Shown: positions 6,809 to 44,448, counted from the stretch's first letter. The stretch is DNA of 64,000 nt from Ruditapes philippinarum (GCF_026571515.1 NW_026863104.1:1-64000), one strand, 5' to 3'. Notes: generated by a model from the sequence alone, not told the origin. Made by a program: numbers and translations.

Positions 6809-7005
6809 TTAAATGAATTTAATTAAGAAAACTGTCTAAAACATTTTGTGAAGCAAAACCGTTTCAATGTCACAATCTTAATTACAATCATTCGTCTCAA
6901 AACCATCGCACAACATTTTATAACTCTCATTTAATAAAAAAGCATATCGTTTTCTTTCGAAAACCTAACGAAGAGCCATATATGACATTTGCGCTGACAA
7001 TATAT

Positions 7006-7239
7006 GAGCCGTGCCATGACAAAACCAACATAGTGCGTTTGCGACCAGCATGGGTCCAGACCAGCCTGCGCATCCGCGCACTCTTCAGGATCCATGCTGT
7101 TCGCTATCAGTTTCTCTACTTGTTATAGATTTTGGTAAGCGAACAGCATGGATCCTGATCAGACTGCGCGAATACGCAGGCTGGTCTGGATCCATGCTAG
7201 TCGCAAACGCACTATGTTGGTTTTGTCGTGACGCGGCTC
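7006..7239. mobile_element. Fold-back MITE, Sola-type (GAG..CTC termini, AWWT TSD)
   Basis: Inverted arms of ~100 bp (gagccgtgccatgacaaaaccaac...gttggttttgtcgtgacgcggctc) with ATAT duplicated on both sides. The same family occurs at 44449-44683 and as a half copy at 34145-34258. Confidence 0.85.
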
Positions 7240-9496
7240 ATATACTTGTAATCAGTATGCAAATGACCGATTTATAATGTGTGGAACAGACTTGCTGTTA
7301 AATAAGAAATTATAGCAAAGTGTAGATTTTTTGCGCGAATTAAATACTAGTAAGTGTCATGTAAATTAAAAGAAAAAAAACAGTACGTAGAAATTGCCGA
7401 GTATCTACCCAAGCCATTTAGGTGACGTGAAGAGGGGAGACCACTCGTGAAGTATGTCATCTACCCGACAATAAAGGAGAGATCACTTCGTGAAAATTGT
7501 AATGACGTGCCTTTAATTACGTACCAACGTTTATGACGTCATTACGTTAACAACCAAATCATTTAGCGACGCCAATTTGACAAGATCTGCAGCTTAATTC
7601 AGCTGTCATCCTTTATTACTTGTAAGAAAAAATATAAGAATGGACACTGTATATCAGCCTTCATATATCTTTTCGCAGAACGGAACTCTGATGTAAGTTT
7701 ATCTTTTCTTTATTTTTGCCGATCATCAAACAAATGGAGAAGTGATTTGAATTCCGATTGAAAATTAAATAGATCTATTCCTTTGTGAAAAAGTGAAGAT
7801 GAATTATTGTAAAGTATTTTACTTATCAAAACTTATGTTGTTCACTTCAAATAGCTACAAATGATTAATGTAACTATCGTTAGTGATAAAAAGTGAATAA
7901 ATATAGACAATTCACTTCAATTGTAACAATAAAATGTTCTTAAATATGATTGATTAATCATATTTTATTCAATTTTTTTGCAGAACCAATCGGTTTGTTG
8001 AGTTTCGGAAGCTGTGTGAATTATTTGCTGATGAAATTATAAAAGGACGAGATCCTTCAGCAATGATATTAACCAAGATCACAAAATTCCCGCCTCTTAG
8101 ATGTAACAAATAATTACCATTATATAATTATAAGTTTATTTCTTTCTCTTTTTCATATACATGTATATTAATTTTTATATTATTTCATTTGTTTTTTAAT
8201 AAGTTATTAAGCATTGATTTATCCACGCAAATTTGTGTTCATTCCTTTTTTTCAATATTGATTAATAAATCTGGAGTATATTCATGCATATGTACATTCT
8301 TTACTCGATATTGATAAATCTGGAGTACATTTATTCATGCGTACAGTCTTTTTTCAATATTGATATTTTCATACATATGTACTTTCTTTACTCAATATTG
8401 ATTAATGAAATGGAATATATTCATGCAAGTGCGCATTGTAGGAGCACATTTGTCTCGGAGCACATTTGTCTCACGAAGTGTGACCGATGTGCTCGTAAAC
8501 ATTCATATTTGCGACAAATTGGATATGAGACAGATGTGTCCGACACACAATAGAAAGGACACTCGAAGCACATTTGTCTCACATTTTTCCATAAAATTCT
8601 TAAAAGGTAACAATTATGCCCATCTGTATACCGGCTACCAGCCATTGTTCTGTGTTTTCTGTATTTATAATACCGTTTTAGGTCACTTCCGGTCAGTCAA
8701 AAACTTCCTGCCTCTGCATAGGAGTCATATATTTAATTAAAGAATATCCCTGTTCTGCATGTCACAATGAAAATTTCTACAAGTGCAGCACACATATGCA
8801 GCAAGTCTTTTCTTATCTTTATTAATTGTGATACGTTTATTTTCAATGCTTAAAGTTTTATAAATGATTAATGGCACTAGAAATATTATTAGCAACAACA
8901 AGGTAGTATCTACGGTGGCATAAAGGGGACCTAATGATTTTCTTATCTATAACCTGCGCACACGATAGCTATTACGTGGCCACGCGATACTATTACGTGT
9001 GCACGCGAAAAATATTATGTTTTAAAGGGATAGTTTTTGTTTGCGCACGCGATAACTATTTCGTGCGTTCGCGGATAGGTATTCCGCATTTGGACCCTGA
9101 CCGGGATCCTCGCATGAATAGTTCGACGCCCCGTGTATGTGTCGAACCTACAGCGGTAAGGGGCAAGTGGTTTTTGAAATCAGTCGGCTACGGAGGCTCT
9201 TAAATGATCTATGGAAGAAAATTAGAAGACCATTACACATGTATTTTTTTTTTCATCAGAAATATATGTATAAAACAATCGTCATTTTCCAAGAATTGCG
9301 GCTTTCAGATCCGCCATTGAAAAAGCATTTACAACATGCACGAGTTCCTAAAATAATCCGGGATAATAATTATTGAATATCGGGCCACTCAGAATCGGGC
9401 GATACGCGACATTCCGATGAGACATGAAGCGAGGCACGATATTGTAACACGACATCTCGCAATGTCGAAGTATCCCGTACCACGAGATTTCAGAAA

Positions 9497-9535: not shown

Positions 9536-10705
9536 TCTTTATTTAAAGAAGGTTACACATTAAGAACATACAATAGCAATCATATATATCTTATTTCCAA
9601 TGTGGCCTTCTGAAATAGAAAACAACAACAACAACAACAGGACATGCATAGGTAGCAAAATGAATGTATAATATGTAATTTTTAGCATAAAACAACTCAT
9701 ATACTTTCGACAGACACTCAACAATTTGTTTAAACATATACGTATATTGCATCATTTGTTCGTTCGTTCATTCGTTTGTACATTTATTCATTCATTCATT
9801 CACTCATTCATATGAACATCAAGATATGATTTGTATTTTTTAAAAAACATTTGAGGTTATTAACATTACGAATATTTAAAGGTATATTGTTCCAAATGTT
9901 CATGCCATAATAAGAAAATGTGTCTTTAATATAATTTGTTTTAGGTCCTGTCCATAATACAATATATTTTCGTGACCTAGATCTTAAGTTATATATTTTG
10001 TTGTCGGATAAAGTCATCAGTTCTGTCATATAAGTCGGTGCCATGTTATTTAAAGTTTTAAAACCAAGCACTGCCGTGTGGTATTTACATCTGTCAGGGA
10101 ACGGGAACCAGTTAAGAGCTTCGAATAGCTTCATTGACGGAGATCTTTGTGGTTGCTGTAAAATGATTTTAGCAATTCGTTTTTGTAAATTACAAAAATT
10201 ATTTATGTAGTTTGTGTTTCCTTTACCCCATATAATACAACAATAGTCTATAATAGGCAATATACATGTATATGCATTGTAAAACAATAATTTCATATCA
10301 AAGTGAAAAAAACACGATATTTTTTTCAATAAGGCAATTTTTCCGTTAAGTTTTTTTACAAACATTGTCAATTTGCAAGTGCCATTTTAAGTTGTTATCT
10401 ATGCAAATACCCAGGACTTTTTGATCAGTTACATTTTCAAGAACTATTTCATTTATCTTAAGATACGATTTTCTCATAATATTTACTTTTTGTCTTGTTC
10501 CTATTACCATACATTTTGATTTATCTGGATTTAAGGCCATATTATTTATTTTGCACCATTTCTTAATGTTATTTAAATGATCTTGAGGTTTTTCTTTTAC
10601 TTTTGATATATTTTCTCCGGACTCATAAAGAGTAGAATCGTCTGCGTATAAATCAATTTTTATATCATTACCAATGAAAGCTATGTCATTTATGTATATT
10701 AGAAT
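9499..10705 (-). mobile_element. 5'-truncated CR1/L2-clade LINE (RT C-terminal half, 3' UTR, microsatellite tail), nested in the TIR element
   Basis: Minus-strand DLYADDST near 10645, followed by LNPDKSKCMVI, LGICIDNNLKW and LPIIDYCCIIWG (ORFs 10346-10540 and 9808-10371, frameshifted). (AAT)n at 9499-9535 marks the tail. Confidence 0.85.
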
Positions 10706-11257
10706 TATTAGAATAAATTTATACTTCTTTAGATATGGTAAGTGTGAATTTATAAATATTCAAATAATGATTTCTGAGGAAGTTAGATGCTTGTAACTTT
10801 TTGGAGCTATAAAAGTATACCAAAATAACTACAAATAAAATAATTTCTTAGGCATAATGGACCTTTAAGTGATTTTACAGTAACAAATGTGACGCTAGAA
10901 TTGTTTCTTAGAATAAACATGACCCCTACTTTTCTCATAATTTTATATCAGTTTTATCAGTTTGATCATAAACTCTTTAAAATGAGATAGGTATTTGTTC
11001 TCTAAAACGGGTCTAGCTATGTTTTGTAGCTCTTTGAAAAATGTCAGTTTTAGGTAGACTATAAAGGGAATACTATTTAGCGGTAAATGACCTGGAATAA
11101 ATTTTTTCTTGTCTCGCGTCGACGAACGAGATGCGAAGCGAGACACGAGATTTCGGCGAGTTGCAAAACAAGTCACGATATTGTATCATTCAATATCAAC
11201 CGATTACGTTGTTCCATTTGGACATAAGTAACATTTTTGTCTCCCTGAACAGCTATG

Positions 11258-17979: not shown

Positions 17980-18337
17980 AGGATATTTTTTCGTTTGAGT
18001 AAAATATGAAATATATTTTCACTCAACATGATAAAATGCCACATATTTTCACGAGCCGGGACGGCGAGTGAAAATATGTGGCATTTTATCATGTTGAGTG
18101 AAAATATATAGCATATTTCTCGAAAAACGAAAAAAATAACCTTTTTATTTAATTTCATTATCAAAGAAAAATGATTATGAACCCCTTGCTTGCTACGCAA
18201 CTGCAATTGTACAGCGGGCATTGCCTAGTTTTGCACGCGATATTTAGCGCTACATTGTGACGTCACGTAAACAACTCTTTTAAACCTCTGTACAGCATTA
18301 ATGACATGATAAAAGATATTGGTGTTCGGATTTATTA
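17980..18337. mobile_element. Non-autonomous element with a long subterminal hairpin (Crypton-like family, tentative)
   Basis: Starts 'agaggatatttt' and has a ~45-bp stem around 'cgagccgggacggcgag'. Homologous copies lie at ~29440-30041 (inverted) and ~36590-37140. Confidence 0.55.
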
Positions 18338-18350
18338 GACGCCGGTAGAA

Positions 18351-18900
18351 ACCGGCGACTATATTTGTAACAGTTTAATATTATATCTATGGTAGGAGAA
18401 GGCCTTAAAATCTGAATATAAAAGCAAATCAATTACTGAACAATTAAGGACCACAATTATTTTTCATAATCTTAAAAATTCAAAAACAAAGTAACGTTGC
18501 TAAATGAAATGAAATATACAAATATTGACATCTTAAAAAGCAACATTACAATTTTCATAAAATGAATTAATAGCGTATCCCTATGGACCAGTCGTTGAAT
18601 TTAGGGATACTTTTACTTTTTTTCTACCGGCGACTATATTTGTAACAGTTTAATATTATATCTAAGGTAGAAGAAGGCCTTAAAATCTGAATATAAAAGC
18701 AAATCAATTACTGAACAATTAAGGACCACAATTATTTTTCATAATCTTAAAAATTCAAAAACAAAGTAACGTTGCTAAATGAAATGAAATATACAAATAT
18801 TGACATCTTAAAAAGCAACATTACAATTTTCATAAAATGAATTAATAACGTATCCCTATGGACCAGTCGTTGAATTTAGGGATGCTTTTACTTTTTTTCT
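18351..18900. repeat. 275-bp direct tandem duplication, nearly identical
   Basis: 'accggcgactatatttgtaacag' at 18351 and 18626; both units end 'ttttactttttttct'. Confidence 0.9.
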
Positions 18901-19604
18901 TAGTGTCATGCGAGGCTATTTTATGATTGATAAATCATGAATGATATTTGAAATGACACATTTAAATTATTTGGTTGTTTATATCTTATGAGACCTATTA
19001 TATTTCATTATTTTATCTAATTTTTAACAGATTCTCCCTGTAGAATCACGTATGTTATTGTTATAAAATCTATTATTAGTAACAGATTGCTGATAAGACA
19101 TACAAGTAACTTGTGAATAGTTGAAAAGGCATGGCGGCTGATTAGATGTAAATGTATAAATAATTATTACAAAGTTATCTTTCATTAATCAGTTTCATAT
19201 TTTATATCATTAGAAAGGTCTGTATGCTCATAATTTACACATTCAAGAATAAGTTTTCAAAACCTTTTTGTTTTTTCTTGGTAAAGGGTTAAACTTTCTG
19301 AAAATCAAAGAAATCATCATTGAAACATACTTGAATAATTATCATATAATTCCTAATATATTTAAATAAATTCCTATTTAATATTTAACATACCGTTATC
19401 AGTTCCAAAGAGTATGTCACATGGTGTTTAGGAGTCAATCAAATAAATACGTTATGTTTAATTGCAAATCACAAGAGTTGAAATATTATGAAAGGAAACA
19501 TTTTAGGAGTGAGAGGAATGATGATTTTATTTGTTTCCATATGGACATATTGAATTTGAAAGCAACGGGACACAGCCTACGGTGCATCCATAAGCGTAAT
19601 ATGT

Positions 19605-22600
19605 TCAACCAAGACGTCCTGTTTGTGTACAGTATACTCTGAAGTCACATATATACATGCGCGTGTATGACAAGAGAATGCAAACAGCATATCGGAAATA
19701 GGAAGTACATGTTTGTCGTTTCTCCACAACGTCACTCTGTCTTTGTACCTCTACAATGGAATACACAAGTTTATCGTTAACGCAATTTTCTGTCAGTCGC
19801 AAATAAAAATAATTAACAGTCTAGACGTAGGTATGATGTTGTTGAATTTAGGTGCCTTATAAATTTCTAATGATTTTACTTATATATCACATTTAATGGC
19901 TCGAAGAAAATCTATATGATCTTGTGTTTAATGAAATAAGTAAACAATATAGACATAGGTATGATGTTGATAAATTTAGGTGCCTTATCAATTTCTAATG
20001 ATTTTACTTATAAATCACATTTAATGGCTCGAAGAAAATCTATATGATCTTGTGTTTAATGAAATAAGTAAACATTCTAGACATAGGTACATGTATGATG
20101 TTGATGAATTTAGGTGCCTTATCAATTTCTAATGATTTTACTTATAAATCACATTTAACTGCTCGAAGAAAATCTATAATTCGAGGATTCAAAGGTAAAA
20201 GGTAATAACTGCCATTTTCTAGATTTCGAGAAAAACGCAAAAAACATATAATTTAATACAACTTTATTTTCCGTAATATTTTTATAACAATTTTGATTCT
20301 CTCATATTTATTGACTACATTAGATCATATTTTGTTAAGTTTACCTTGCTTGGTGCTGATAAAACACTGTAATTATAGTTTGTTTTAAAGTTCTAAAATC
20401 AAAATAATATCATTTTACAGAAGTAAAAGGTAATAAATGTACTTAGATCCTGTCAAGACAATAAGGTTGGGAGGTAAAAGGTAATAACTGCACTTACGAC
20501 CTTTTACTTCAGAAGGTTTAGCAATAAAAGTTCCAGATAAATTGTTATAAAATGTAATAAGTGCAGTTATAGCCTTGTTCCTCTGAAAAGAATTTAGATG
20601 TTGCAGTTATTGTTACTGTTGCCAATTTATTTATTATGTCCTTACTTTGAAGAACCGTACGTAATGTAATTAACACACATGCACAATAATACTCGTACAC
20701 AAAACTGACAATTTTCATTCATAGAAATATGAAATATGTACCTGCTCAATATTTAGATTCTACAGAAATAAATTGATAACTAAAAAGTTATAAAATAAGT
20801 ACTAAAATCTTTGTTTACAAATTTTCATTTATTTTGAATGTTCTCTGGTATATAATCGAACTGAAGTCAAACAGACCCCAGACATCAGCAATTAAGGATA
20901 TTAGTGACCGATATCATAGTTAAGTAAATAAAGACTACTGTTGCATGTCACAAAATGCGAATGTTTGTCATTAATTATTCCATGACCTTCACTCATCTTC
21001 TTCAATCTCACTAACAGGAGGCATTGAAAGTTTGTCTTTTATAGATTTGATGCATGGCAATGACTCATAATATGATTCGTACTTGTCGGAATTGTCCCAG
21101 AGGCAACAAGTGACATCAAATCAGTCTTTTTGCAGCAGACATTGGAAGCTTCTCTGTATAAGCCTTGCGTGGAGCCTTAAAAGTTTTTTTTGCTTCTGCT
21201 CTTCTTCTGCATTAACCTTAATTCCTTGAACTCACTTACATCAAAACCATAGTTCACAAAGATACTGTATTCTTTGTCTTTACGAACTTGAATCAATTTT
21301 ATATTCAGCCAATTAACTGGTTCTCCATCAACATCGATTTTTATTGAGCCAAAGTTTTGTTCTTTGTACAACTTGTAATTTAGTATGTCAGTGTATTTTA
21401 TTGGAACGACAATATATAGTTGCTTCCGGCGTGCTAATGATATAACTGTTTCCCACTGAGATGGAACATTTACTTTTGTGAGACTTTTTGCATGCTCGAT
21501 AGATGCATGTATGGAATCACATTCCATTTCTGAATGGCCACTTTCTTGGACACAGTGAACTAAGCAACTTGCAACAAACTGATTGCGATTCTGTCCCCCA
21601 CATGTATCACTATAATTATAATGTCACTTCTTCAATACCAGATGTCTTACTTGCAACAGAAGTTACATACAAGTACACACAAGTTCCTACTTCGCACGAC
21701 CCTCGTTTCCCCTGTGTCTCATCCCACAGCTAACAAGTCCCCTTACCATTTCCCAGTTCATAGAATCACAAATTGTAACAACACAGTTTTCTTTTGTAAT
21801 AAAATTCACCATTTAAACTACATGGTGTTGTCAATATAGCCTGGAGATCAAATGCCGACACAGACAACTTTGGATCTTTCTTTGCGCGTTCTTTATAAGC
21901 TGATTTTTCCATCCTAGCATTGTTTTTTTTTTCTTTCTTGGTGTGCCTGATATTTTGCTTTTGTTGCCCTTTTAGAAAAACGTCTTTGTACACTCTTACC
22001 ATTTTGCCACCAACTGTGAAGAAAAACGAATTCGAAATAGTTCTTTGTTTTGTTCTCTGTTTAGATACCTTCTCTGGTTCTTTATTGGCAACATGGAAAC
22101 AAATAAATTGCCTTTGACTTTTGTAATCACCCATTGACCAGTATGTACTGAATATTTTCTGTCTTTCATCTTCGGTTATATTCTTGCTGCATTTAAATCT
22201 ACACTTAGAGCAATCCTTTCTCTTTAGGCTTCTTGCTTTCATTGATTTTCCTGTTTTACTTGTATACTCCTGTCCTTTTGATCGACGATCTTTTCTAATA
22301 TTGGCTTTCCACAAAAGTCTGCTGACTCTTCGTTTACGACTCAAACACTTACGTTTTGGGCTTATATATGATGCATCTTTGTGAGGCGTTACCTTCAGTG
22401 GAGACCCTTTTCGTTTTCGTTGCTTTGATGGCGTTCTTTTATTCTCTGGGGGTTCTGCGGTTTGCTGTGTTTCACAAGCTTGATCAGCAATCTCTTCCCT
22501 GTCATCTGTGGCATTTAAGTTTGTTGCTACAGTATCATAGTGATATTTGTCGTGTATTGCAACACGTGCCACTAAAATTGGTGGCAAATCTTACTCAGTG

Positions 22601-25600
22601 TTGATGTGTGGTTTAATTTCTACAATCGGTTGGGTTGGCCGGCTAGAAAATATCCGAAGTCGTCGTTGAAATAAATTAGCAATGCAGAGCGGAGCAAAGT
22701 CTGCCATGTATGTATTGCATCTACCGTCAAACCTTATTTCTTCTATCAATGCCATAAATTTGTCCAATTCTTCTTCTGGTGTAAGATTATCTTCAAATGT
22801 TACAAATTTTATGTATTCTGCGCATTTTCATGTATGTGTTTGGCAACGTTCTGTCGCAAATCTTGCACAGACACGGGGTTGTCCAAAAATTTAAGGACAG
22901 CTCTAAGCAAAGAATTTCCGTCTGCCAGTATTTTCTTTCGCTTCAACATGTTGCTGGCAAGAATCTTGTCAAGACGCTTAGTATGATAATCATAGATTTG
23001 CTTTTGTCCAATTGCTTCTCTTCTGCTTTTTGTTTTTGCTTTCGCAACTGCTGAGTCTTCATCTGTTGTAGAATAATAGTCGCTATCAGACATTGTGTCT
23101 AGTTGTCTATCATCTACTCTGTAATTTATCTTTTGGCATTTCAACTGTTTGCCTCTTTTTATGTGTTTGCCTCGACGTTTCCAGCCTTTATCTCTGTTTG
23201 GAGTGTTAGTATTTTCAGGGGAGAACATTGGTGCATTATCAAAATCACTTTCAGTTCTTGGATTTCCAGTATAGTTACTGGAAATGTTTTCTTGGTCTTC
23301 AATGTAAATTATGCAATCAATGGTTTTGTCTGAATAGGCTGCATCCTGTTTTCTAATTCTTTGTATTAATTCTAATAAAGGTATATCATCCAGATCATCA
23401 CAGTTTTCTTCTTCTGTGTAGCATGTGTCATTTCTAAGTTCTTCTGACCGTGTGTCTGTGTCATTTACTTTGCTATAGGTGTTTACCAGAGCTTTTACAT
23501 ACGCATTGTCATACTTGATTAATATTTCAATACCGTCATTATCAAACTGATCTGGGATGTAGTGAGGTACAGCTGTTTGCTTTTCTTGAGGAGAAACCAA
23601 TGTTGTTTCCAACACACTTTCATAATTCATCTCATATTGGACTACTGCATCTATGCTATCGTAATCATTTTCCGAATGTGCAAAAACATTATATATTAAC
23701 ATAGATGAATGTATAACATGTAATATAATGTAATTATTAAAACTGTCCATTATATATATAAACATAATTATGTACCGTATAATAATTTTGATTCTATGTC
23801 AGGGCTCCCATTCAAATGTAACAGACAATACATAAGTATTATTTGATAGTAGAATTATATTAAGTGTAAAATTTCATAATGCATTTATCTTAAGTATTTT
23901 AAGTAACAAATACAAAATTGAGATTTGCATAACAGTTAATAAAAACATTTAATGTAATCACAGAGAAGCTATTAAACGAAAGTTTAATATTTGTGATTAA
24001 ATGATTAAAAACAATACACAAATAGATGTAATTTATATTGAAAACAAAAAATACAAATATGAAATAAAATAGAAAGAATTAAATTTCACTTACCATGAAT
24101 TTTTGCTGTAATACTTTCCACTGTAAAATTATTGTACTCTTCTTGTCCAAATGGCCAATACACAAGCAATTAAATGATTAAATGGCAAGGATTTCACACA
24201 GAATCTTTCTTATCTGATTCAGTGTTATAATTAATTTACTGAAAGGGATTCTCTCTGGCTAAGGTGATAAGTAAACAATTAGCGTGAGAAATTTCTTGGG
24301 AAAAGGGATAACAGATAGTGCCTGTGAACTGTATGAATGCAGTATGCCAGAGGAAAAAGGTGATAAAATCAGTTATAACCTTTTTCCAGTACAGATTCTT
24401 CACAACATGTGGAACAACAGGTAATAAGTACACTTAGAACCTTTTACCCCTACATTATTTGTAGAAAGGAGTTATTACAAAACACTTTTTAATGTTTTGC
24501 CCTTATAAGGATTGAATATTTCTATAATATTTTAGTCAGACAAAAAGGACAATGAGTACATTATAAAAAACATAAAAAGTCATTTTCGGCAAAAATGGTA
24601 GTTATTACCTTTAACCTTTGAACCCTCGAATATGATCGTTTAATTCGTTTGATTTAACAATGGGATACATAAATATAACTTTATGTTTAACATTTTGAAA
24701 GTGGTTTTACAACAATTACTTTTCATCCAATATATTTTCGTTCCCCTGCACATTCCTTCAACCTTTTCAGAAACCAGATATTGCGGAACCTCAGTATCTG
24801 TCCTTACCCACTCTTGCTTGTCAGCCTCGTTATCCTTTTTTTGGTGAATGTCAACCTGTAAGATAAAACAAGGTCATTTTTTTCAACTGAGTCATTACAT
24901 TGTAGTTAATACGATTTTGAACATAATTAAGGATACAGATGTTTCGCTTATGAAACCATTATTTACACAGGAATATGTCGGACAATTTTCACAATGTTTT
25001 TGTCGGAACATAAAATCTCGTGGCCAGTTAATATACAGATATATAGTATACCTCTCCATTTGAATACTCGTTAGGGTCAAGACTTGGAGCTTCGGTCTCA
25101 TTCATATGCTGTGCAATACATTCGCTTTGAGTATTACTCTCCCTATCAACAAATCGTGTAACAACTATGCCCTGAAATAATTGTATAAAAAACATTTTGT
25201 CCCAACTTGTATACGACTGTATAATAACAATTAGATACATGATTTAAGTCAAAAAACTGTTTCCCATTATATCCCATGGGCCATTTAATCAACCGTTAGT
25301 AAGTATGTAAAGGATGCTTTATAGAGAAACTCAGGCAAATTAATGACAAAAATATTAAAATGATCTTATGAACTCAAATCATACTAAAATTACATTTTTT
25401 TAAATCCTAGCATGAATTCTATATAGTTTGGTTTTGAAGTGTAAATATACATTTGTATCTATACGAGTATGTTTAACGCAATTAAGAAGCCGACAGAATT
25501 ACAGAATAGTTTAAAATAAGTTTTGTGACTTGAACATACCCTGGAAGATACAATAACATGGATATTCTAAGTCATTCATTTGACATGTGTTTAACGTTTC

Positions 25601-28600
25601 CAAAGTTCACTGTGACAACTATAGTGAAATCTTAACGCTCTTACCTGACCCACGCGTGCAAGGTTAGAAAACAATCATTTTATACTTCATACTGAGACAA
25701 GATCTGTTCCTGTGACTACCTAGTGTATTCATTTTGAGGACATTTACAGAACAATGAAGGAAAAATTCAAAACGAAGAAATATAAATTTTGCCTGTGTCT
25801 CCCTTTATGAACCAGGTTTTCAACGAAAACCGGGTTATTGTAATGCCGAAGTCGGCGGAATTGGGTGGGCGTCAACTTTTGGTTTCCGCTCAATAACTTT
25901 AGTTTGCTTTGGCCTATTGACACCAAACTTGTTGTGTAGGTAGCTTATATCAAGAGGCATCTTGAGATTGCTACCCAGGTGACTGTAATCAAGGTCAAGG
26001 TCACTGTTACTTAAAATAGAAATCTAGTTTCCGTTGAATAACTTGAGCTTGCTTTGGCCTATTGACACCAAACGTGGTGTATGGATAGCTTATATCAAGA
26101 GGCAGCTTTGGATTGCTACCCAGGTGTCTGTGATCAAGGTTAATGTATTCAGTTTTCACGTAATAACTGTGTGTTTGCCTTGACCTTTTGACAAAAAAAA
26201 TTGCTGTGTGGCAGCTTTGGATTGCCACTTAGATATCTGGGAGCAAGGTCATTTGTTTACAATAGAATTTTCAGTTTCTACACAATAAATTCAGTGCACT
26301 TTGACATATTGATTGCTGTCACATCAAAACTTGGTCGTTGAAAACGTGGTTTTCGTCGCATTGCGGCGCTTCTCGTACCTACTTAGCAACATCTTCTTAA
26401 ATGATCATAAAATACATTTTAATATAAAGTGTTTGAAGAGGGGGTCTTCTATAGATTTACATTCTTGTTTATGTGCAGGTCATCCACATGGTCAACTTAC
26501 ATGTTCGTAATCATAGATGACATCTGCCATATTAGAAATCCGCACGTCAACCTCTGTTTTTGTTACATTAATCTCCTCCTCAAATACGTCCCCTTCGTCA
26601 GATTTGAATGTTTGATGCACAACCTATGTAACATTAAATAAAATGTGCATTCTAAATGAAAGAATATATAACAAGCGATCCTATAATTCAACGGAATCAC
26701 TGAAAAAAACAACATTTTTATATATAATTTGATCATAAAGCTCAGGATACGATCAGGCAGTCAAATGGTGAATATATTTCTTTAGGTACCACTGGTTGGT
26801 ATATCAAGAGGAGGCATTTCAAAACTACATAAAGGAAATTACTGTGGAAAACAAAAGAAAAAAGTAAGTAATCAACTACCCCAACATTTACTAAATTTCA
26901 ATCAAATAAAATAAAACAATATATTTTGTCCAAGGTTTGTACGTTTTACTAATCCTCTTATGTTTCACAAATTTATTTCTGTTATAAACAAAAAACAAAA
27001 CAACATTATAAATAAAAGCAAATTAAACAAAAATAAACAAACAAAAAAAAACAAAGAAACAAATAAAAAAACGAAAAAAAAAGGTAAAAAGGGTAGTATA
27101 GCAAATATAATTAAAGGTGTTTTAGATATTTTAGTGTCAAAAAATTAAACTGGATTTGTTAAAAATAGATATATTGGAGAAAATACTAGATTATTATATG
27201 ATATAATGAAATATACTGAAGATAATAATATACCTGGTTTAATTATGATGATCGATTTCGAAAAAGCCTTTGATACATTGTCTTTTAAATTTATAGAAAA
27301 ATGTCTTTTACTGTTTAACTTTGGTCCTATGTTAAGGAAATGGATATCATTATTTTTATATAATACTGAAACTTGTTTATTCTAAATGGGTTTTTATCTA
27401 CATTCTTCAAGGTTAAACGAGGCTGTAGGCAAGGTGATCCAATTTCACCGTATATGTTCATTTTATGTGTAGAAATATTAGCTATTAAAATAAAACAATG
27501 TAACGATATTAAAGGTATACAGTCATATAGATCGTGAAGAATACAAAATTACACAATTTGCAGATGATACATCACTATTGTTAGATGGTACTGAAAAATC
27601 ATTAAATAATGCTCTAAAATTGGAATTTATTTTCAGAGATTTCTGGACTAAAAGTAAATTTTGATAAAACCAAAGTCATTTGGATAGGTTCCCTTAAGTG
27701 CAGTACTAGATCAATCAAGACAAAATGGAAACTTACATGGGGTGATACACAGTTTAAACTGCTAGGTTTGATATTTGATGTAGATTTAGACAAAATGATT
27801 GATTTGAATTTTTATGAAAAAAGGTAAGAAATAGTATAAGTCATTGAAAAAAAAGAATGTTGACACCAATAGGTAAAGTCACTGTTGTTAAGTCTATTTT
27901 ACTTCCATTATTTACACATTGTTTAACAAGTTTACCAACTCCTAGTGGAGTATTTTTAAAGACCCTCAATGATATATTGTATGACTTTATATGGGGAGGC
28001 AAGGCAAAAATAAAGCAATCAGTATGACAAAGACATACAAAGAATGTGGTCTTAACGTGGTTGATATTTATAGTTATATACACTGTTTAAAGATAAAATG
28101 GCTTAAAAGGTATGTTAATAATAGTGAAGGAAAATGCTTTAACCTTATAAAATCACTGTTTAATATTGATAAAATTTTTGATACTGGAAAATTGTTCTGT
28201 GATTTGATTATTAATAAGATTAAGATTCTTAAGATTAAGATTAAGATTAAGCCTATATTGTACTTATTGATAAGCTTAATATAGATGATATCGAACAAGT
28301 GCTACATATGCCACTATTTTATAACCATAAATTGTTAACAGGAAGTAATATTTTTTATTATATCTTTATATGATCTTGGATAAGATTTGTAAAGGATATT
28401 TTAAATCAACATGGAGAACTTTTAGACTTAAGTTACAAAGAACAAATTACATGTAAACCAATTAATTTTATACAGTATCATAGTTTGAAATTGGCAATAA
28501 AATGATACACACAAAACCTTAATATTTGTATTCAAAATGACTTACTGTATGTTCAGTATCCTATTATAAGTTGTTACATCAAACCTATTATAGTTGTCAA

Positions 28601-31213
28601 TAGCAACCATAAATATGTTTATGAAACCATGGTAACAACTATAGAGGTACCAAAATGCCAAGAAAAATGGATATCTACCTTTGGAGACATTTCCCTAAAT
28701 TGGCAGTTTATATATGGTAATGTATTTAAATGTACTAAAGATTCATACTTACAATGGTTTCAGACAAGAATTATTCACGGAATATTGGCAACAAACTCTC
28801 TTTTATTTCAAATGAAAATAGTTAATACTAAAATGTTCACTTTTTTGTGAATGTCAAGAAGAAACACTGATACATTTATTTTGGGAATGCAAAAAGATTC
28901 AGCCAATATTTCAGTTTCTGAAAGATATAATATAATAACATAATATTCATACCTTTTTTAATTGTAAATCTTTTATTCTTGGCTGTGAATTAAATGACTA
29001 TAGATATGATATTTTATTTTTAGAATTAAAAAGATATATATATTTATTATATACTTATAAATGAAATATTGAGAAATATTGATGAAATAAAATGCGTATT
29101 TTCATTTTCCGTATTTTCACTGTAAAAATTTATTTTTCACTGCAGTGAAACATATTTTCCGTATTTTCACTGGTGTCTTGTCGGACTACTTTCTTTTAAA
29201 TTCTACCAGTACACAAAATTTAAGGGAAAGTTTTTCAAATTTTATCACAAAAAAGAGAAAAAAGTACACAATAAACAGAAAATTCAAGTTTTTTCTATAA
29301 ATACATGATTTATTTTCATCTTGTGGCATGAAAATTACCATATTTCACTCGTGGCTACCGCCACTCATGAAATATTTATTTTCATACCACTCGATGAAAA
29401 TATATCATGTATTTATAGAAAAAACTTGAATATCCTCTATTTATTTAATTTTACCCATGAAATATGGTGCTACATCAGTGAAATATATTTCATATTTTTA
29501 AAAAAAATAAATATGAAATATGAATATGGAAATTGGCGGAGTCAAAACTCATATTTTTTAAGGGACTTCTTCCGCCATTTTGTTTTAAAATTTGAAAAAT
29601 ACAAAACAACTTTTTGTTGAATTTTGCTTTGAAAACTATCTAGAATGATAGAAAATGGTCTAACTAAGAAAATAAATCCGAACACCAATATCTTTAATTC
29701 AATTATTAACGCTGTACAGAAGTTTAAACAATTGTTTACGTGACGTCACAATGAAGCGCCAAATAATGCGTGCAAAACCAGACGCAATAATATATTACTG
29801 CGCGCTGTACAATTGCAGTTGCGTAGCAAGCAATAGGGTTCGTAACCATTTTTCTTTAATAATGAAATTAAATAAAAAAGTTATTTTTTTCTTTTTCGTG
29901 AAATATGGTATATATTTTCACTCAACATGATAAAATGCCACATATTTTTACTCGCCGTCCCGGCTCGTGAAAATATGTGGCATTTTATCATGTTTCGTGA
30001 AGTATATTCCATATTTCACTCAAACGAAAAAATATCCTCTCAATATTTGTCTGAGCGAAAATAATTGTTACCTACTTGTACTGGTTTTAAAAATAGCTTG
30101 AAGTTAGCTTGGAATTGTTATAAAATATAAATTTGACAACAGAAGAAATCAATAGATGGGCAATTGTTAAATCTTTTAATTCGTAACTGAAATAACTACA
30201 TCAAAATTTGGTTATTCCACTTATATAAAAGATAACAACTTCTATGCATCCTATATATTTCTCACACAATCGAACAAAGAAAATCCAATAGAATTTGCAA
30301 ATAAATCTTATTAAAAAAAACCAATAAGGACCTACCTTGTATGCTTCTGTTGTAATTTTTGGTCCAAAATGGACAGACACAAGGACAATAGCTGCAACAG
30401 CTGTCAAGGCAACAACACCAGCTTCCACTCCAACTATAATTATTTTGTTCGAACATCCCTTAGATACTTCATTGTGAACCTTGAAATATTTTCATAAAAA
30501 ATAATTTAAAATAAATTATACATTTATTTATAAATTAAATATAGTTGTATCCTAATAATACGATCAAAGGTTATGTGTTAAAATGCAAGGTAGCGGACGC
30601 ACAAACATTTCTGTTAAAAAGTGCCATCTGGTTTTTAAATAAATAACCGCAGTATTAGTATTAGTTTAAAATTGTTTAATGCCTGAACTTCATATCAAGG
30701 CATAAGTTAATTTGACATTAAAGTCTGAAGTCAAAGGTTGTGACCAAATATAAAGGATTATAACCTCTTGATTTGGTTTTTATTTTTACATTAAATTACC
30801 CAATCTTTAATAACTTTACACTTGTGTCACAATATTATTTTACGACAGCTTTTCCTTTTGAAGTAATATAAGTTTAACTTCAGTTTAAGAATCATAATCA
30901 ATGTTAACAAATCAGCACTTGAAATTTAAATTCAATTTAGAGTACATTTGTTATGTAGACAAAAGGTTAATGACGTTTTCACATCAGCACCTTACACAAC
31001 TTTACATAAACTTACTAAAATATTGCAGTTTTAATATAATAAAGGCAAAATCAAAATCATTTATAATGCATCCAAAATATTTAAGAACTAAGTATGGCTA
31101 GTGGTTACGAATATAAGTCTTCAGCATTTAATGATACTCAAAAGATAGGAATGTATGCTCATAAATGAACTAGATATCATTTGAAGTATTTTTCTGAAGA
31201 CGAATCTTACCAT
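19605..31213 (-). CDS. BRICHOS-domain type II membrane proprotein, paralog A (236 aa; 253 aa if the ATG at 31264 is used), with a C-terminal 4-Cys beta-hairpin-like peptide
   Basis: GT-AG exons 31213-31211 (ATG), 30479-30336, 26623-26501, 25171-25052, 24855-24720 and 19789-19605 join without stops: M|[48 protein letters not shown]|[41 protein letters not shown]|[40 protein letters not shown]|[45 protein letters not shown]|[68 protein letters not shown] hallmarks: VIYDY Asp, first Cys (SECI), second Cys followed by xxxxIYW. Confidence 0.85.
19821..20180. repeat. 128-bp tandem repeat (~2.8 units) in the last intron of BRICHOS-A
   Basis: Units start at 19821, 19949 and 20077. The paralogous intron (~38198-38300) has one unit. 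Confidence 0.85.
20181..24629 (-). mobile_element. Sola1-like DNA transposon, decayed, encoding an OTU-like domain and a transposase
   Basis: ~38-bp TIRs tcgaggattcaaaggtaaaaggtaataactgccatttt / aaaatggtagttattacctttaacctttgaaccctcga. Inserted in ATAT (right copy exact, left ATAAT); the empty site is at ~38292. Transposase motifs CSKCRFKC, FDLQAILTTP..FYYKRKLCCYNL and GHSEMECDSIHASIE in ORFs 21766-22587 and 21177-21527. Confidence 0.8.
25806..26377 (+). mobile_element. Helentron/HINE-type non-autonomous element with ~150-bp internal repeats, intronic
   Basis: 5' 'accaggttttcaacgaaaaccgggt' palindrome. Repeated 'aataactt..gctttggcctattgacaccaaac' units. 3' 'gaaaacgtggtttt' inverse plus the hairpin 'cgtcgcattgcggcg'. 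Confidence 0.7.
27125..29045 (+). mobile_element. Decayed 5'-truncated L1/Tx1-clade LINE (ORF2 RT), antisense within intron 2 of BRICHOS-A
   Basis: Translated fragments GFVKNRYIGENTRLLYDIM, IDFEKAFD, RGCRQGDPISPYMFILCVEIL, ITQFADDT and WFQTRIIHGILATN, with many stops and frameshifts. Absent from the paralogous intron (~40125). Confidence 0.85.
29066..30041. mobile_element. Two adjacent hairpin-bearing non-autonomous elements (Crypton-like, tentative)
   Basis: Both end in 'aatatcctct' (about 29438 and 30040). The second is the reverse complement of 17980-18337 and 36590-37140. Confidence 0.55.
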
Positions 31214-31290
31214 CTTAGCTCTTCCAACTTTGCAATCTGGGTAGTTCTTGTGATTTCTATCCATATCTAAAATTAAAAAAGTAAATTACA

Positions 31291-33363: not shown

Positions 33364-34447
33364 CTAAAATAGGGAGTAATAAAGAATCCCTAAAGAACGC
33401 ACAAGACGACACAATATGTTGCAGGCTAAAACAATGTAAGAGTGTTATACCTGGCCATTTAAAACATACAGCAATTGTTATTTGTATTTATGAGAATAAA
33501 TAACAATGCATGGGAATTCTAACCACCAGTAATAGTTGATGAATAGTTACAGTGCAAGCCATGGATGCTGTGTTAACTTACCTGTGATGTCTTGCAAGTA
33601 GGATATAGCCCAGTATAGCCCTCTGTCATTCCCGGAATTCATCTATATCTATGAGCAGTAGCAGCTGTGGGCTAACTTCAAACATTAATTTCAATTACAT
33701 TGTTTCCAATACAGAATTATATGAATTAGAAATAAAATATTTCAAATAAAACATTTCAAAACCTCAACATGAAAAATGTGTTCAGATTGAAATCATGAAT
33801 AATATTGAAATAGTTAAATTACCATGTAACATATGCACATACAACACGTACAGAAATGCTGATGGATAATTGATTTACAATAACACAAGATCACTGCGGT
33901 ATACCGTGCCCCGGATAATGCTCGATATTATGAGGACTTTCATCCAATTTCGCGACTTTGAACAGGGAACGAAGGTTAGTTCAGCGACGATATTTTCCAA
34001 ACTAATGGCTATTTCATTTATCTCAACGGGTTTTATATATCTAGAGGTATTTTTGTAGCTCTAAAAGACGTAGAAGTATAACAGGTATTTGTAAAATTGA
34101 TTAAACTACCACTAAACGATCCACTGCTCACTAGAAAATACTGACGAGAGTTGGTAAGCGAACAGCATGGATCCTGATCAGACTGCGCGGATGCGATGGC
34201 TGGTCTGGATCCATGCTGGTCGCGAACGCACTTTGTTGGTTTTGTCATGACGCGGCTCATATTTCCAATCACCTCGTGTCAGAAAACCTCAGTGGAGTCC
34301 CTTAAAATTTAACATATCACTGTTTTAATTTTTATTTAATAGTAAATCAATTAAACTGAATAAGACTGTTTGTGTTCATGCAACAATTAAGAAAATGTGA
34401 TAATTAAAGTTTTGATACTAGCTAGTCTCGGTCTTTATTTTATATAG

Positions 34448-37963: not shown

Positions 37964-40900
37964 TTATGTAATATTTTCAACCAAGACGTGTCCTGTACAG
38001 TATACTCTGACGTAACATATATACATGCGCGTGTTTGACAAGTGAATGCAAACAGCATATCGGTAAGAGATAGTACATATAATTAGTGTGCGTCGTTTCT
38101 CCACAACGTCACTCTGTCTTTGTACCTCTACAATGGAATACCCAAGTTTATCGTTAACACAATGTTCTGTCAGTGGCAAAATGAAATAAGAAACAATCTA
38201 GACAAAGGTATGATGTTGATAAATTTAGGTGCCTTAACAATTTCTAATGATTTTACTTATACGATCACATTTAACTGCTCGAAGAAAATCTATATGATCG
38301 TTTAATTCGTTTGATTTAACAATGGGATACATAAATATAACTTTATGTAACATTTTGAAAGTGGTTTTACAACAATTACTTTTCATCCAATATATTTTCG
38401 ATTCCTTGCACATTCCTTCAACCTTTTCAGAAATCAGATATTGCGGAACCTCAATATCTGTCCTTACCCACTCTTTCTTGTCAGTCTCGTTATCCTTTTT
38501 TTGGTGAATGTCAACCTGTGAGATGAAACAAGGTCATTTATTTTCAATTTTATGAGTCATTACATTGTAGTTAAACGATTTTGAATATAATTAAGGATAC
38601 AGATATTTCGCTTATGCAATTATTTATACAGGGATATGTCGGACAATTTTTACAATGTTTTTGTCGGAACATAAAATCTCCTGGCCAGTTAATATACAGA
38701 TATATAGTATACCTCTCCATTTGAATACTCGTTAGGGTCAAGACTTGGAGCTTCTGTCTCATTCATATGCTGTGCAATACATTCGCTTTGAGTATTACTC
38801 TCCCTATCAACAAATCGTGTAACAACTATGCCCTGAAATAATTGCATAAAAAAGCATTTTGTCCCAACTTGTATACGACGGTATAGATTCTAATAACAAT
38901 TATATACATGATGGAAGTCAGATAACTGTTTCCCATTATATCCCATGGACCATTTAATCAACCGTAAGTAATTAAGTAAGTAAGTAAGTAAGTAAAGGAT
39001 GATTTATACCTACTCAGCAATATCTGCTTAAATGATCATAAAATACATTTTTATATAACGTGTTTGAAGAAGGAAGTCTTCTTGTTTATGTGCAGTTCAT
39101 CCACATGGTCAACTTACATGTTCGTAATCATAGATGACCTCTGCCATATTAGAAATCCGCACGTCAACCTCTGTTTTGGTTACATTAGTCTCCTCCTCAA
39201 ATATGTCCCCTTCGTCAGATTTGAATGTTTGATGCACAACCTATGTAATATTAAATAAAACATGCATTCAAAATGACAGAATTATATATGACAAGCGACC
39301 CTATAATTCAACAGAGTCATGAAAAAAAAACATTTTTATATATAATTTGATCATAATGCTCAGGCCCCGTGTTCACAAAGAAAAGATCAGGATCAGGATC
39401 AGATGATCCTGATTTTATTTTCATTGTTTTATACAACTAAAATTGATGGTATTATGCTAGAAGTAAATGGTACATATTCGGAATATAAATAATTGCTTAC
39501 TTGCAAAGAAACCAACCTATTTTGGGGAAAAATCAACAAATAACAAAACAAATACAAAAATAATCGGATCAAAATAAGGATCAAGATCAGGATCAAGATC
39601 AAAATTTGGATCAACTGTAAAATGCCCATATCTTGTAAAAATAAGAATAAATTCATTCTAAAATTTCATAAGCATGCTATCTCAAGTCCAGTTTTATTAA
39701 GTTAATACTGAATATTTCATCTATGAGGATAAATAATAGAGAATATTTGAGTTTTTAAATTTGATCCTAATCTTGATCCTGATCCTTAAATCTTTGTGAA
39801 CACGGGGCCAGGATATGATCAGGCAGTCAATTGGTGAATATATTTCTTTAGGGACCACTGGTTGGTGTATCAAGAAGTACATAAAGGACATTACTGTGGA
39901 AAACAACAATGAAGTAAGTAAGTAATAAACTACTATAACATTTACTAAATTTCATTGAAATAAAATAGAACAACATATTTCGTCCAAGGTTTTTTTATGT
40001 TTTACTAATCCTCTTATGTTTCACTTTATTTCTGTTATAAACAATAAAAAACAAAACAACAAAACAAATAAAAGCAAAAACAACAAAAAACAAACAAACA
40101 ATTAAAAAAAACGAAAAAAACACACACAATCGAACAAGAAGAAAATCCAATGAAATTTGCAAATAAAAACCCAATAAGGCCTACCTTGTATGCTTCTGTT
40201 GTAATTTTTGGTCCAAAATGGACAGACATAAGAACAATAGCTGCAACAGCTGTCACAGCAACAACACCAGCTTCCATTCCAACAATTATTCTTTTATTCG
40301 AACGTTCCTTAGATTCTTTAATGTAAACCTTCGAATATGTCATAAAAATTATTTTATATAAATTATAATTATTTATTTATTTATATATTAAATGTAGTTG
40401 TTCCCTAATAATAGGATCAATGGTTTTGTGTTAAAATGCAAGGTAGAGGACGCACAAACATTTCTGTCTAAAAAAAACTAGTGATGTTATATGAAATACA
40501 TACATTATATGAAATATTTTTTCGTCATTAAATTTTACTTATCATACAAAAATTTTAGAAAATTCTATGAAGGAAATGTTTCGATATTTTTTTAATAATT
40601 TACAGGATTCATGTTTATATTGCTCATTTTTTGTTCAGTTAAAAAGCTTGAAAAACTCATATTTTTAAGAAATATATTCAAATTATCATTTGTTTCATAC
40701 AGAATCAAAAAAACAAGTTATCTTTGTATGAATTTGTGCTTGTTTTGTGTATTTAACTGTCTTTTACATTTTTTATATTTTAATACACAGTGTGACTATT
40801 TTGACAGTTCTGATATATACGGTTACCATGGAAACTGCCATTTCACAAAAAATCCAAATTGTCAACATTTTTTTTTTATTCGCCATTAAATTTTACTTAT

Positions 40901-43900
40901 TATACAAAAATTTTTAAAAAATCTATGAAAGGATTAAAGTTTCCTTAAACTGTAGAAAATGTCTTTAAGCTTAACGAATATTTCATAGCAAGTTTTATAA
41001 ATTGTACACACTCTTTATGCTCTATTTCTGTGGGTATAAAAAATCAGTGCAAGATCAGGAAGTAAGGAAGTAAAGAGTTGCTTTATTTGATTTATTTCTG
41101 CCGTTAAAGAAATGTCATCAATGCAAACATTTAAATCATCAGTTACCTTTTAAGTCATCAGTATATTTGGAGTATTTTTCAACTTGGATATTAAGTGATT
41201 TATTGGAGCTTGGATTATTTTTTAAAATAGTTTAAATTATTCTTGTGGATTTTATTGTGGGAATTTATTCTAAAGTGTTCTTGGATTTTACTTGGATTTA
41301 AGTGTGCTATTCAAAAAGGATCATTCCAGGATCAGACTAGACATTTGAAATTTACATTTTTATTTGGATTTCAGGTATTTGTACACATAATTTGTTGTTT
41401 TAATTTTCTTTGATAATTTTTCTGTAATAAATTTGTTATTGTTACAAGTTTGTTGCTGGCTTTTCTTTCTCGTTACGCCTGGCTCGTAACAATATATACG
41501 GTTACCATGGAAACTGCCATTTCACAAAAAATCCAAATTGTCAACATTTTTTTTATTCGCCATTAAATTTTACTTATCATACAAAAAATTTAAAAAAATC
41601 TATGAAAGAATTAAAGTTTCCTTAAATTGTAGAAAATGTCTTTAAGCTTAACGAATATTTCATAGCAAGTTTTATAAATTGTACACACTCTTTATGCTCT
41701 ATTTCTGTGGGTATAAAAAATCAGTGCAAGATCAGATAGTAAGGAAGTAAAGAGTTGCTTTATTTGATTTTTTTTCTGCCGTTAAAGAAATTTCATCAAT
41801 ACAAACATACGTAACTGCGATTAATATATTCTTCCATTCTTACCCAATACGTGTGTTTATTTATTTAATATTTGCAAATGTTTTGATATATAGATTAAGT
41901 GTTCCTAAAACAAAACAATCAAGGCAATATTTATCTGTTTCTTAATAGCAATCAGCAGTTGGACTGATTACTGTAATAATGAAGTAATTTCAAACAAAAT
42001 AATTACTATCAATAAAGCGTTTTAAGACATGTTTTGTCTGTGCCAAATTCTTTTTTACTGGCAATGTCATGAAAAAAGATATATTTGACAAGATCATAAA
42101 AAGTAACTTAAATGCTTTTTCTGGCACATGAACTGTGATAATATCAGTCTTTCCAGGTTCCATTCCTAAAGCTTGCTTCATTATAAAACGTTCAGAAGAC
42201 AATACCTAAGAGTGCTGTGATTTTTTTGCTATGCATATTGAAGGCTGCTGGCGTATCACAAGCTTAAATAGCTGCCCAAAGTAATAAACTCCTAATTATT
42301 TTTTTTATATATCCCACGTAGTAGTTATCCTTATTATAGAACAAATTAAAATGGCACCAAGACGCTTCCGTAAGTATGTCATTCTATAACATCTTTTTCT
42401 GAAAAAGGTATAGGTGAAATTATGCCCATCCAAGGGTATATAGAGAGTGAACAGGTGAAAGCCAAAGAATTTTACATTTTACCATAATTCCTTTCAATTT
42501 TATAATATTCATACCATGAACGATGAAGAACGCATATGGCATAAGGGAATTCTATAAATATTTACATGTAACACTCAATTTATAATAAGAGTGGTGCAGT
42601 CTTGTCATATTTTGGGGAGATTTACATTCTATTCTAAACATTTGCGGTCAATCCCTATTGAAACAGTCATTTTTTTTAAATACATAATCAATTCAGCTTA
42701 AATTCACAAGGAAAACATCTCATTAATATGTCTTCTATTTGAGTTAAACTAATCTTGACATACATAATTTATTTCCTATCACAGAAGCACTTTTTACTTT
42801 ATTTTTCCAGCACAAGAAATAAAGATTTAAATTCGAATACTTAATATGGTTTAAAATCAATCAATTTGTAAATGCCTTAACTTCATACCAAGGCATCAGT
42901 TAATTTGACATTAAAGTCTGAAGTCAAAGGTTGTGAACAAATGTAAAGCATTATGGCATCTTGATTTGGTCTTTTTTGTACATTGAATTACCCAATCCTT
43001 AATAACTTTGTGATTAATGCTTCCGAGGGATCACTTTGTTTCCAGATTTTTATACTTCACAACAGCAGGTGTCAAGTGCTGTGTGGCAGCTGTAAAAGGT
43101 TGCCGCGTACTTCACTTCAGTGTTGTTATATTTTTCTGGTCCTTCGGGATCATTGATGCCAGCACTATTAAATGTTGAGAATTGAGTACCGCTCAAGCCG
43201 GTGCTAGGGGGCGTGAGGGATGTTGCAATTATTCATTATCCCTCATGTACAGACTCAATCAAACCGAGTCTGCAATTCTTATGTAATTTTGTTGTGAGTA
43301 ATGCTTCCGAGGGATCACTTTGTTTCATGATTTTATACGTCACATCAGCAGGTGTCAAGTGATGTGTGGCAGCTGTAAAAGGTTGCCCCGTACTTCACTT
43401 CAGTGTTGTTATATTTTTCTGGTCCTTCGGGATCATTGATGCCAGCACTATCAAATGTTGAGAATTGAGTACCGCTCAAGCCGGTGCTGCTAGGGGGCGT
43501 GAGGGATGTTGCACTTATTCATTATCCCTCATGTACAGACTCAATCAAACCGAGTCTGCAATTCTTATTATATGTAATTTTGTTGTGATTAATGCTTCCG
43601 AGGGATCACTTTGTTTCCAGATTTTTACACTTGTGTCAAACTATTTTTTAAGACAGCTTTTCCTTTTGTAGTTTTATAAGTTTAACTTCAGTTTAAGAAT
43701 CATAAACTAATCAATGATAACAAATCAGCACTTGAAATTTAAATTCAAATCAGATTAAAAGTGTTATGTAGACAAAAGGTTTATGACTTTTTCAGATCAG
43801 CACCTTACAAAACTTTACATAAACTTACTAAAATATTGCAGTTTTAATACAATTAAAGAAATGCGTCTTAAAAATTTTGTATTCAAGTATGGATAGTGGT

Positions 43901-44003: not shown

Positions 44004-44448
44004 CTTAGCTCTTCCAACTTTGCAATTTGGGTAGTTCTTGTGATTTCTATGATATCTATATCTAAAATACAAATCAAAGTATATTACATTATATTTCATA
44101 ACACTACATTATATAACATTACATTATATTACATTACATCACATTAACCAATTCTACATTCAGCTGTTTAAACCACAATGTATATAATATATGATAAACA
44201 ACATCAACAAGGAAAGGCGGCGTTTGACATGAACGTAACCCCCATATGACGCAGCAACAAGAACCAGCGGCAAGGAGCCCAGGTGGACCCCAAACAAAAA
44301 CCTGGCTCTTAGCCCCACCATGTTCCTATAAACGAGACAGTGTAAATAAAATGAATCCCCGTAAAAGGTTTACGTGTCAGTCAGCACTCTTTTGAATCAG
44401 ACCATACCAAGGTTTATCAAATACATGTAGATAGAAAAACATGTATTT

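Follow-up and report, generated by a model that had tools for sequence, protein, structure and literature searches.

Results

A six-exon BRICHOS precursor gene on the minus strand

The window that we analyzed comprises 64,000 nucleotides from the clam Ruditapes philippinarum (GCF_026571515.1, NW_026863104.1:1-64000) and contains, on its minus strand, a six-exon precursor gene, here termed copy A, that encodes a membrane anchor, a BRICHOS domain, a Lys-Arg site and a C-terminal peptide. A first-pass annotation had flagged a 36-residue peptide here without specifying a strand. The 36 codons are encoded on the minus strand from position 19715 to position 19608 (19608..19715), and the plus strand reads differently. 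On the minus-strand reading, the peptide comes after VVEKR, begins with Gln and ends with Gly immediately before a TGA, as had been proposed, and a recount of its composition bears out the four Cys residues and the net charge of +3. The predicted mature peptide corresponds to residues 1-36 of an ancestral 62-residue peptide, carrying Cys at positions 3, 12, 23 and 29, an Arg in place of Cys19 (19661-19659) and a derived Gly36 (19610-19608). The Lys-Arg dibasic site that precedes it (19716..19721, minus), read from the sequence, is a predicted convertase cut, and its Arg is nearly invariant among 36 relatives.

The peptide lies in exon 6 (19527..19750, minus; RefSeq model P0001), whose acceptor AG at 19752-19751 is in phase 1 and is conserved in all four of the gene copies described below. 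The exons before it, also on the minus strand, are exon 5 (24720..24855), which bears the second BRICHOS Cys, exon 4 (25052..25171), which bears the first, exon 3 (26501..26623), which holds the start of the BRICHOS domain and its conserved Asp, and exon 2 (30336..30479), which encodes a hydrophobic membrane anchor; a 25170/26500 joint is found in contigs from runs X1 and X3. When joined, the exons of copy A reproduce letter for letter RefSeq model P0001, a 240-residue R. philippinarum protein that is probably not independent of this window's exon model. The six exons are separated by introns in phases 0,0,0,0,1, as they are in two paralogues (C and D) on other contigs. An alternative acceptor at 19789, which would bring in an extra linker Cys, was rejected, being absent or out of frame in the paralogues; it is also ruled out by the use of 19750 in RefSeq and in the contigs.

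Matched against Pfam, the joined exons are recognized by the BRICHOS family PF04089 (E 4.7e-08, 33.6 bits against a cut-off of 25), and the stretch that had been assigned to a BRICHOS precursor with a KR site proves to be the last exon of a spliced gene of that kind. The BRICHOS Asp and the two Cys residues (D104, C125 and C183) are invariant in 36 rows. Near the N-terminus, the best 19-residue Kyte-Doolittle mean is 2.46, starting from residue 31, and an AlphaFold model of P0003, a variant of paralogue C, has a helix at 41-60. Residues 61-204 form an acidic proregion with a net charge of -13, which is followed by the dibasic site, where cleavage is predicted, and by the C-terminal peptide. 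Single exons, including the peptide exon, gave no significant match to Pfam, and a PF04089 search of the clam's own genome returned one sub-threshold match and missed the genes of copies A to D, because the BRICHOS domain is split over exons.

A broken tandem copy and a lost first exon

Approximately 18 kb from copy A, the window holds a tandem copy, B, on the minus strand (37964..42181; exons 42181-42116, 40328-40185, 39240-39118, 38832-38713, 38515-38380 and 38127-37964). Its exon-1 donor is GC instead of GT, and its exon 6 carries an insertion and a frameshift and has lost its 3′ half, which encoded the tail. Arg19, Gly36 and the TGA (37979-37977 in copy B, where it is out of frame) are common to A and B, and should therefore predate the duplication that separated the two copies (dS 0.063), unless they were moved by gene conversion.

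Copy A is without approximately 2.4 kb of DNA that is present in copy B (40474-42863), the deletion junction lying at 30620..30670, and this missing segment includes the ancestral first coding exon and the DNA upstream of it. The RefSeq model supplies a substitute first coding exon (31211..31264, minus) that has a homologue on contig C8643, after which no BRICHOS exon was found in the stretch examined. A small exon-like element with a conserved acceptor and donor occurs in three places (31211-31264, 44001-44048 and C8643:25852-25944). Intron 5 spans 4.9 kb in copy A (19751-24719), as compared with approximately 250 bp in copy B. It includes broken transposon-like ORFs on the minus strand (21177-23798), with no Pfam family over the cut-off, and tandem repeats of approximately 127 bp (19807-20178), and contigs joining 22201 to 24289 are found in 4/4 runs.

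A frameshifted Pao/BEL-type retrotransposon (52753-59552; DUF1759, RVT_1 and Peptidase_A17) lies between two 369-bp repeats that are 95% identical, and decayed reverse-transcriptase-like fragments occur at 27149-28850, in intron 2 of copy A, at 48721-51409 (both RVT_1) and at 9808-10759. A 275-bp direct duplication with 98.5% identity occupies 18351-18900, an 87-bp tandem array 4369-5063, and a palindromic repeat of approximately 240 bp is present at 7001-7249, 44444-44694 and 34147-34262 and recurs on other contigs. On the plus strand, a Cys-rich exon (2260-2430) gives a weak EB-module match that falls under the cut-off (E 8.4e-05).

Full-length paralogues carry an eight-cysteine peptide

Two intact six-exon genes elsewhere in the genome encode 62-residue peptides with eight Cys residues, namely paralogue C (L015:6407-6592, plus, from contig C8643; net charge +4) and paralogue D (L013:6709-6894, minus, from contig C3940; net charge +12). 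Several variants of paralogue C occur in public contigs (P0003, P0046-P0050), and the same framework is found in the Mercenaria proteins P0004, P0005, P0007 and P0015, with peptide lengths of 58-62 residues across the clade; the distant P0015 carries an additional Cys, and its framework is displaced by one residue. The eight positions are 3, 12, 19, 23, 29, 44, 48 and 57. In an alignment of 12 rows, five of them near-identical variants of paralogue C, Cys 3, 12, 23 and 29 are present in 12/12, and Cys 19, 44, 48 and 57 in 11/12, the exception being copy A, which before its stop retains only the first four. The spacing of the eight Cys residues may resemble that of the tenomodulin/chondromodulin tail.

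In a prodomain tree of 30 rows, A and B join C and D (100/99), and all four fall inside an eight-row clade with Mercenaria genes (100/99); two distant rows, included without trimming, form long branches. The searches for relatives returned no named polychaete precursor, so the tree includes none. The nesting of A and B inside this 8-Cys clade implies that the long form is ancestral. Peptides of the clade are multi-copy and range in net charge from +2 to +12, and their dN (0.35-0.46) is well above that of the prodomains (0.06-0.12). A further BRICHOS copy was not found in C8643:1-50000, C3940:1-40000 or C11591:64001-88487, and P0015 used as a query in the genome of R. philippinarum gave 0 matches, which is uninformative. 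One weak genome match (L009, of L009-L011) proved to be an integrase-like ORF read in a different frame and was rejected. In paralogue D, part of exon 5 has been duplicated into intron 5 (L013:7142-7219), where the copy contains a stop and is dead.

A premature stop and a vestigial tail

The TGA that ends the copy A reading frame at codon 37 (19605..19607, minus) corresponds to CGA in paralogue D and to GGG in paralogue C. Beyond it, the frame remains open for 25 codons, which encode three further Cys residues, up to a TAA at 19529-19527; these vestigial codons 38-62 and the ancestral TAA (19527..19604, minus), now 3′ UTR, contain no indel and keep Cys 44, 48 and 57. The tail is identical to paralogue C at 16/25 residues and to paralogue D at 14/25, and among 100,000 shuffles none reached 16, the maximum being 8. 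Since the in-frame tail matches C and D and the TGA is aligned with sense codons, the TGA is not the ancestral end of the gene, and by its sequence the 36-mer is a truncation of a longer peptide rather than a natively short one. The dN of the post-stop tail (0.28-0.37) is similar to that between the paralogues (0.27), and, with all three Cys residues kept in a tail no more diverged than this, the stop may only slightly predate the A/B split.

C and D have Ile or Val at position 36, where Gly occurs only in A and B, and Gly stands at the C-terminus in 0/6 of the full-length peptides compared (C, D, P0004, P0005, P0007 and P0015). The suggestion that a C-terminal Gly could serve as the amide donor thus stands insofar as a Gly directly precedes the stop, and fails insofar as it took this for the native chain end, owing to the derived premature stop. 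Gln1 is shared by copy A, paralogue C and two Mercenaria peptides, which makes the proposed N-terminal pyroglutamate plausible.

Predicted structure and cysteine pairing

In an AlphaFold model of the full peptide of paralogue C (pLDDT 87.9), strands span residues 6-14, 20-29 and 35-44, so a stop at codon 37 would remove the third strand and the tail of the modeled sheet. For the full peptide, we infer the pairing 3-29, 12-23, 19-44 and 48-57: the two-Cys relatives P0009, P0038 and P0008, with Cys at 3/30 or 7/29, keep the equivalents of Cys3 and Cys29, and the strand register would pair 12 with 23 and bring 19 near 44, leaving 48 and 57. The beta-hairpin envisaged in the first-pass annotation would accordingly comprise residues 6-29 of the full-length paralogue model, and its C1-C4/C2-C3 disulfide arrangement agrees with this pairing, in which the 3/29 bond follows the two-Cys relatives and Cys12 faces Cys23 in register. 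Under the same pairing, truncation would orphan only Cys19, and this is the Cys that has been lost, to Arg, in A and B. The loss of Cys19 and the gain of Gly36 fit a derived two-disulfide, possibly amidated hairpin.

Searches with the full peptide by Foldseek (best E 0.5) and VIA (best Z 4.0, rmsd 2.6 over 43 aligned residues, a generic three-stranded sheet), together with PDB sequence and Atlas searches, gave no significant match, which does not show a new fold. The AlphaFold model of the whole precursor had a pLDDT of 45, too poor for use, and a fold search with it returned nothing at E 0.001; a complex prediction for BRICHOS and the 36-mer, run without an alignment, scored 0.02 and yielded no verdict.

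Selection tests and contigs of presumed RNA

Synonymous and non-synonymous prodomain changes were counted per branch, giving 3/5 for A, 3/14 for B, 11/20 for the A-B stem, 7/10 for C and 13/13 for D. Omega is 0.45 on the A branch, which with 8 changes does not depart significantly from neutrality (P 0.23), and 1.26 on the B branch; in this respect B resembles a neutral copy and A resembles C and D. Pairwise prodomain omega is 0.74 for A-B and 0.32 for C-D, and the branch changes of A+B compared with those of C+D give a Fisher P of 0.13. Exons 2-6 of A contain 0 disruptions, as compared with 3.5-4.5 expected had they been neutral since the A/B split (P ~0.01-0.03); the expectation was drawn from 6,192 aligned non-coding bases, and the significance is probably overstated because introns gain indels faster. 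A and B differ at 10/90 bases in the peptide and at 27/558 in the prodomain (Fisher P 0.026), and the four remaining Cys residues are kept in both.

Contigs from four runs (of 24 found), each run from a different study and its RNA origin guessed, were compared with positions 19350-26700. The last exon of A is covered by a contig in 4/4 runs, with 0-6 differences. In three of the four (X1, X2 and X4), the copy A contigs end at the acceptor, 19750, with 13-14 letters over, as expected of a spliced molecule, and the X3 contig (19507-19728) has 0 differences, the TGA included. Copy A contigs have depths of 5-25, as compared with up to 25,000 for shared-exon contigs that have loose ends with paralogue sequence; contig depth cannot rank genes, and the low value for copy A is a hint only.

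Relatives with variable cargo

A search of representative proteins returned 32 at E up to 0.001, the named sources being Mercenaria, Dreissena, Mya, Sinanodonta and Lingula. Cargo after the KR site has 0-10 Cys in these relatives and varies in length between 18 and more than 100 residues, and several are hairpin-like peptides of 26-37 residues; several Lingula cargoes end in Gly-Lys, Gly-Arg or Gly. Short, amidation-ready cargo would therefore be viable in the wider family, though it is absent from the full-length 8-Cys clade. Through these relatives, the worm-type precursor design and its hypervariable Cys-rich cargo extend to clams, zebra mussel, one freshwater mussel and the brachiopod Lingula.

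Nine Lingula anatina BRICHOS precursor entries (P0034 and P0053-P0060, some of them isoforms) have Arg/Tyr/Cys-rich cargo of 35-46 residues with net charges of +3 to +15, and judging from these sequences the set looks like undescribed brachiopod hairpin defense peptides. In P0011 and P0017 (Dreissena) and P0013 (Mya), the cargo either ends in a long mucin-like tail rich in Thr and Ser or lacks Cys and is anionic.

Discussion

A proposed shortened defense peptide and its rivals

We favor, with a probability of roughly 0.45, a reading in which copy A yields a shortened two-disulfide beta-hairpin defense peptide, probably selected after truncation and now likely a minor product. The anchor would take the precursor into the secretory pathway, the acidic BRICHOS region would hold the beta-prone cationic tail and prevent its aggregation, and a proprotein convertase would cut after KR, as family knowledge and other BRICHOS families lead us to expect. 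Gln1 may then cyclize and Gly36 may be converted to an amide by PAM, and the released peptide, by analogy to polychaete BRICHOS peptides, would serve as a membrane-active host defense. The 8-Cys peptides are cationic and diverge far faster than their prodomains, as defense peptides would be expected to do. Several observations count against the favored reading, including the loss of the ancestral exon 1, with the start now placed on a predicted substitute exon, and the broken state of twin B, which has the same stop; in addition, a net charge of +3 is modest for 36 residues, and the peptide exceeds the 11-25 residues of described hairpin antimicrobial peptides (AMPs).

A substantial chance, smaller than that given to a shortened defense peptide, belongs to the possibility that copy A, though transcribed, is a duplicate in decay that lost its function when the stop appeared, with Gly36 and Arg19 present by chance and the full-length paralogues doing the work of the family. 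In its favor, strand 3 and three invariant Cys residues are lost to the stop, exon 1 of A is deleted, B is broken and evolves at an omega of 1.26, the A-B prodomain omega exceeds that of C-D, the A-branch test is not significant, and the low contig depth offers its hint. Against it stand the intactness of exons 2-6 where 3.5-4.5 disruptions were expected, the match between the lone lost Cys and the predicted orphan, the new Gly directly before the stop, and the retention of four Cys residues in A and B in spite of the excess of base differences in the peptide. It is quite improbable, in our estimate, that the peptide is made and processed without being antimicrobial, and would instead serve mucus or shell matrix as a structural or aggregating constituent, or act in signaling, in the manner of vertebrate BRICHOS cargo. 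Relatives whose cargo is anionic, lacks Cys or has a Thr-rich tail (P0013, net -4; P0011 and P0017) indicate that cargo function varies, and vertebrate BRICHOS cargoes are aggregation-prone (PMC9714404), whereas the 8-Cys clade is cationic and multi-copy, and its combination of a fast peptide with a slow prodomain is the pattern described for BRICHOS defense peptides (PMC10745061).

Still less credence, very little in fact, is due to a 62-residue, 7-Cys product of A, as would result from read-through or recoding of the TGA or from its being a rare allele. An in-frame tail that is free of indels and keeps its three Cys residues speaks for such a product, but an intact tail has a P of ~0.7 under neutrality, and the TGA is also present in copy B and in the X3 contig. 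The TGA is aligned with Arg or Gly and not with Cys, and the base after it is A, which is a weak context for read-through. No SECIS-type Rfam match was found in 18300-19800, the predicted fold of the 3′ region is no stronger than those of shuffled sequences (z -1.27), and a selenocysteine/read-through pattern gave a negative result, with 20 matches against 15 expected.

The favored reading of a shortened defense peptide can be extended to a broader proposal, which we regard as unlikely on present evidence: a venerid family of BRICHOS-chaperoned defense peptides built on an 8-Cys three-stranded scaffold that is new to the literature, with one lineage in which a nonsense change, the loss of the orphaned Cys19 and the gain of a terminal Gly produced a capped two-disulfide hairpin. 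If true, copy A would provide a datable snapshot of the birth of a hairpin antibiotic by truncation of a larger scaffold. It is in any event a testable case of a new peptide formed by truncation, and an ordinary one if it is merely decaying. For experiments, the full-length paralogues, whose net charges reach +12, are preferable to the flagged 36-mer. If active, these peptides would widen the mined source of stable antibiotic scaffolds and represent a new immune peptide family in a major farmed clam. In the literature searched, which took in few subscription journals and was judged by titles and abstract openings, no description of bivalve BRICHOS peptides, including the 8-Cys clam family, was found; one table row lists an upregulated BRICHOS transcript in mussel (PMC4203926).

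Comparison with known BRICHOS proproteins and hairpin peptides

The vertebrate proteins ITM2/Bri2, tenomodulin, chondromodulin and BRICD5 share the layout of the copy A precursor, from a type II anchor to a beta-prone C-terminal peptide, and vertebrate BRICHOS proproteins are described as comprising a type II anchor, BRICHOS, a convertase site and such a peptide (PMC9714404). No significant sequence link between the copy A peptide and these proproteins was found, and the family profile matched the BRICHOS chain of ITM2B (8rnu) weakly (E 0.29).

Hairpin AMPs have been described as a class with 11-25 residues, charges of +1 to +8 and at least one disulfide-linked hairpin (PMC13001179). Gomesin, tachyplesin and protegrin are two-disulfide amidated hairpins of 16-18 residues where lengths are given, gomesin carrying both pyroglutamate and an amide, and that account of them describes no BRICHOS precursor (PMC13001179). 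The copy A peptide, a predicted two-disulfide hairpin with predicted modifications, falls within the charge range at +3 and outside the length range at 35-36 residues, and its hairpin and disulfides are drawn from the paralogue model and the two-Cys relatives. Its likeness to gomesin-type AMPs is thus one of predicted shape, not of membership.

The closest parallel is with the polychaete BRICHOS-AMP precursors (arenicin, alvinellacin, capitellacin, abarenicin, nicomicin, the HfBRI peptides and AmBRI-44a), which have the same hydrophobic N-terminus, acidic BRICHOS proregion, dibasic site and cationic Cys-rich C-terminal beta peptide. A 2022 review calls BRICHOS-AMPs 'only found in polychaetes' (PMC9756803). 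Thirteen precursors have been described, with cargo of 18-91 residues, and five HfBRI precursors share with copy A a membrane anchor (PMC10745061). Dibasic sites and an acidic proregion are described for such precursors (PMC6265681), a conserved BRICHOS Asp and an AMP group are described for the BRICHOS family (PMC9627735), and AmBRI-44a is listed with four disulfides (PMC11767717). The alvinellacin gene has six exons in phases 0,0,0,0,1 (PMC4002450, Fig. S6 legend), as do copy A and paralogues C and D, a correspondence of phase and not of aligned position. Unlike the polychaete precursors, the genes described here reside in a clam, and their ancestral cargo is an 8-Cys peptide of 58-62 residues, predicted to be three-stranded and matching neither a Pfam family nor a solved structure; the copy A 36-mer differs further in being a derived truncation that is longer than the described hairpins. 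A cationic, Cys-containing C-terminal peptide with predicted strands is nonetheless common to copy A (net +3, 4 Cys) and its paralogues (+2 to +12, 8 Cys), and on these anatomical grounds the copy A precursor would work like a polychaete BRICHOS-AMP precursor.
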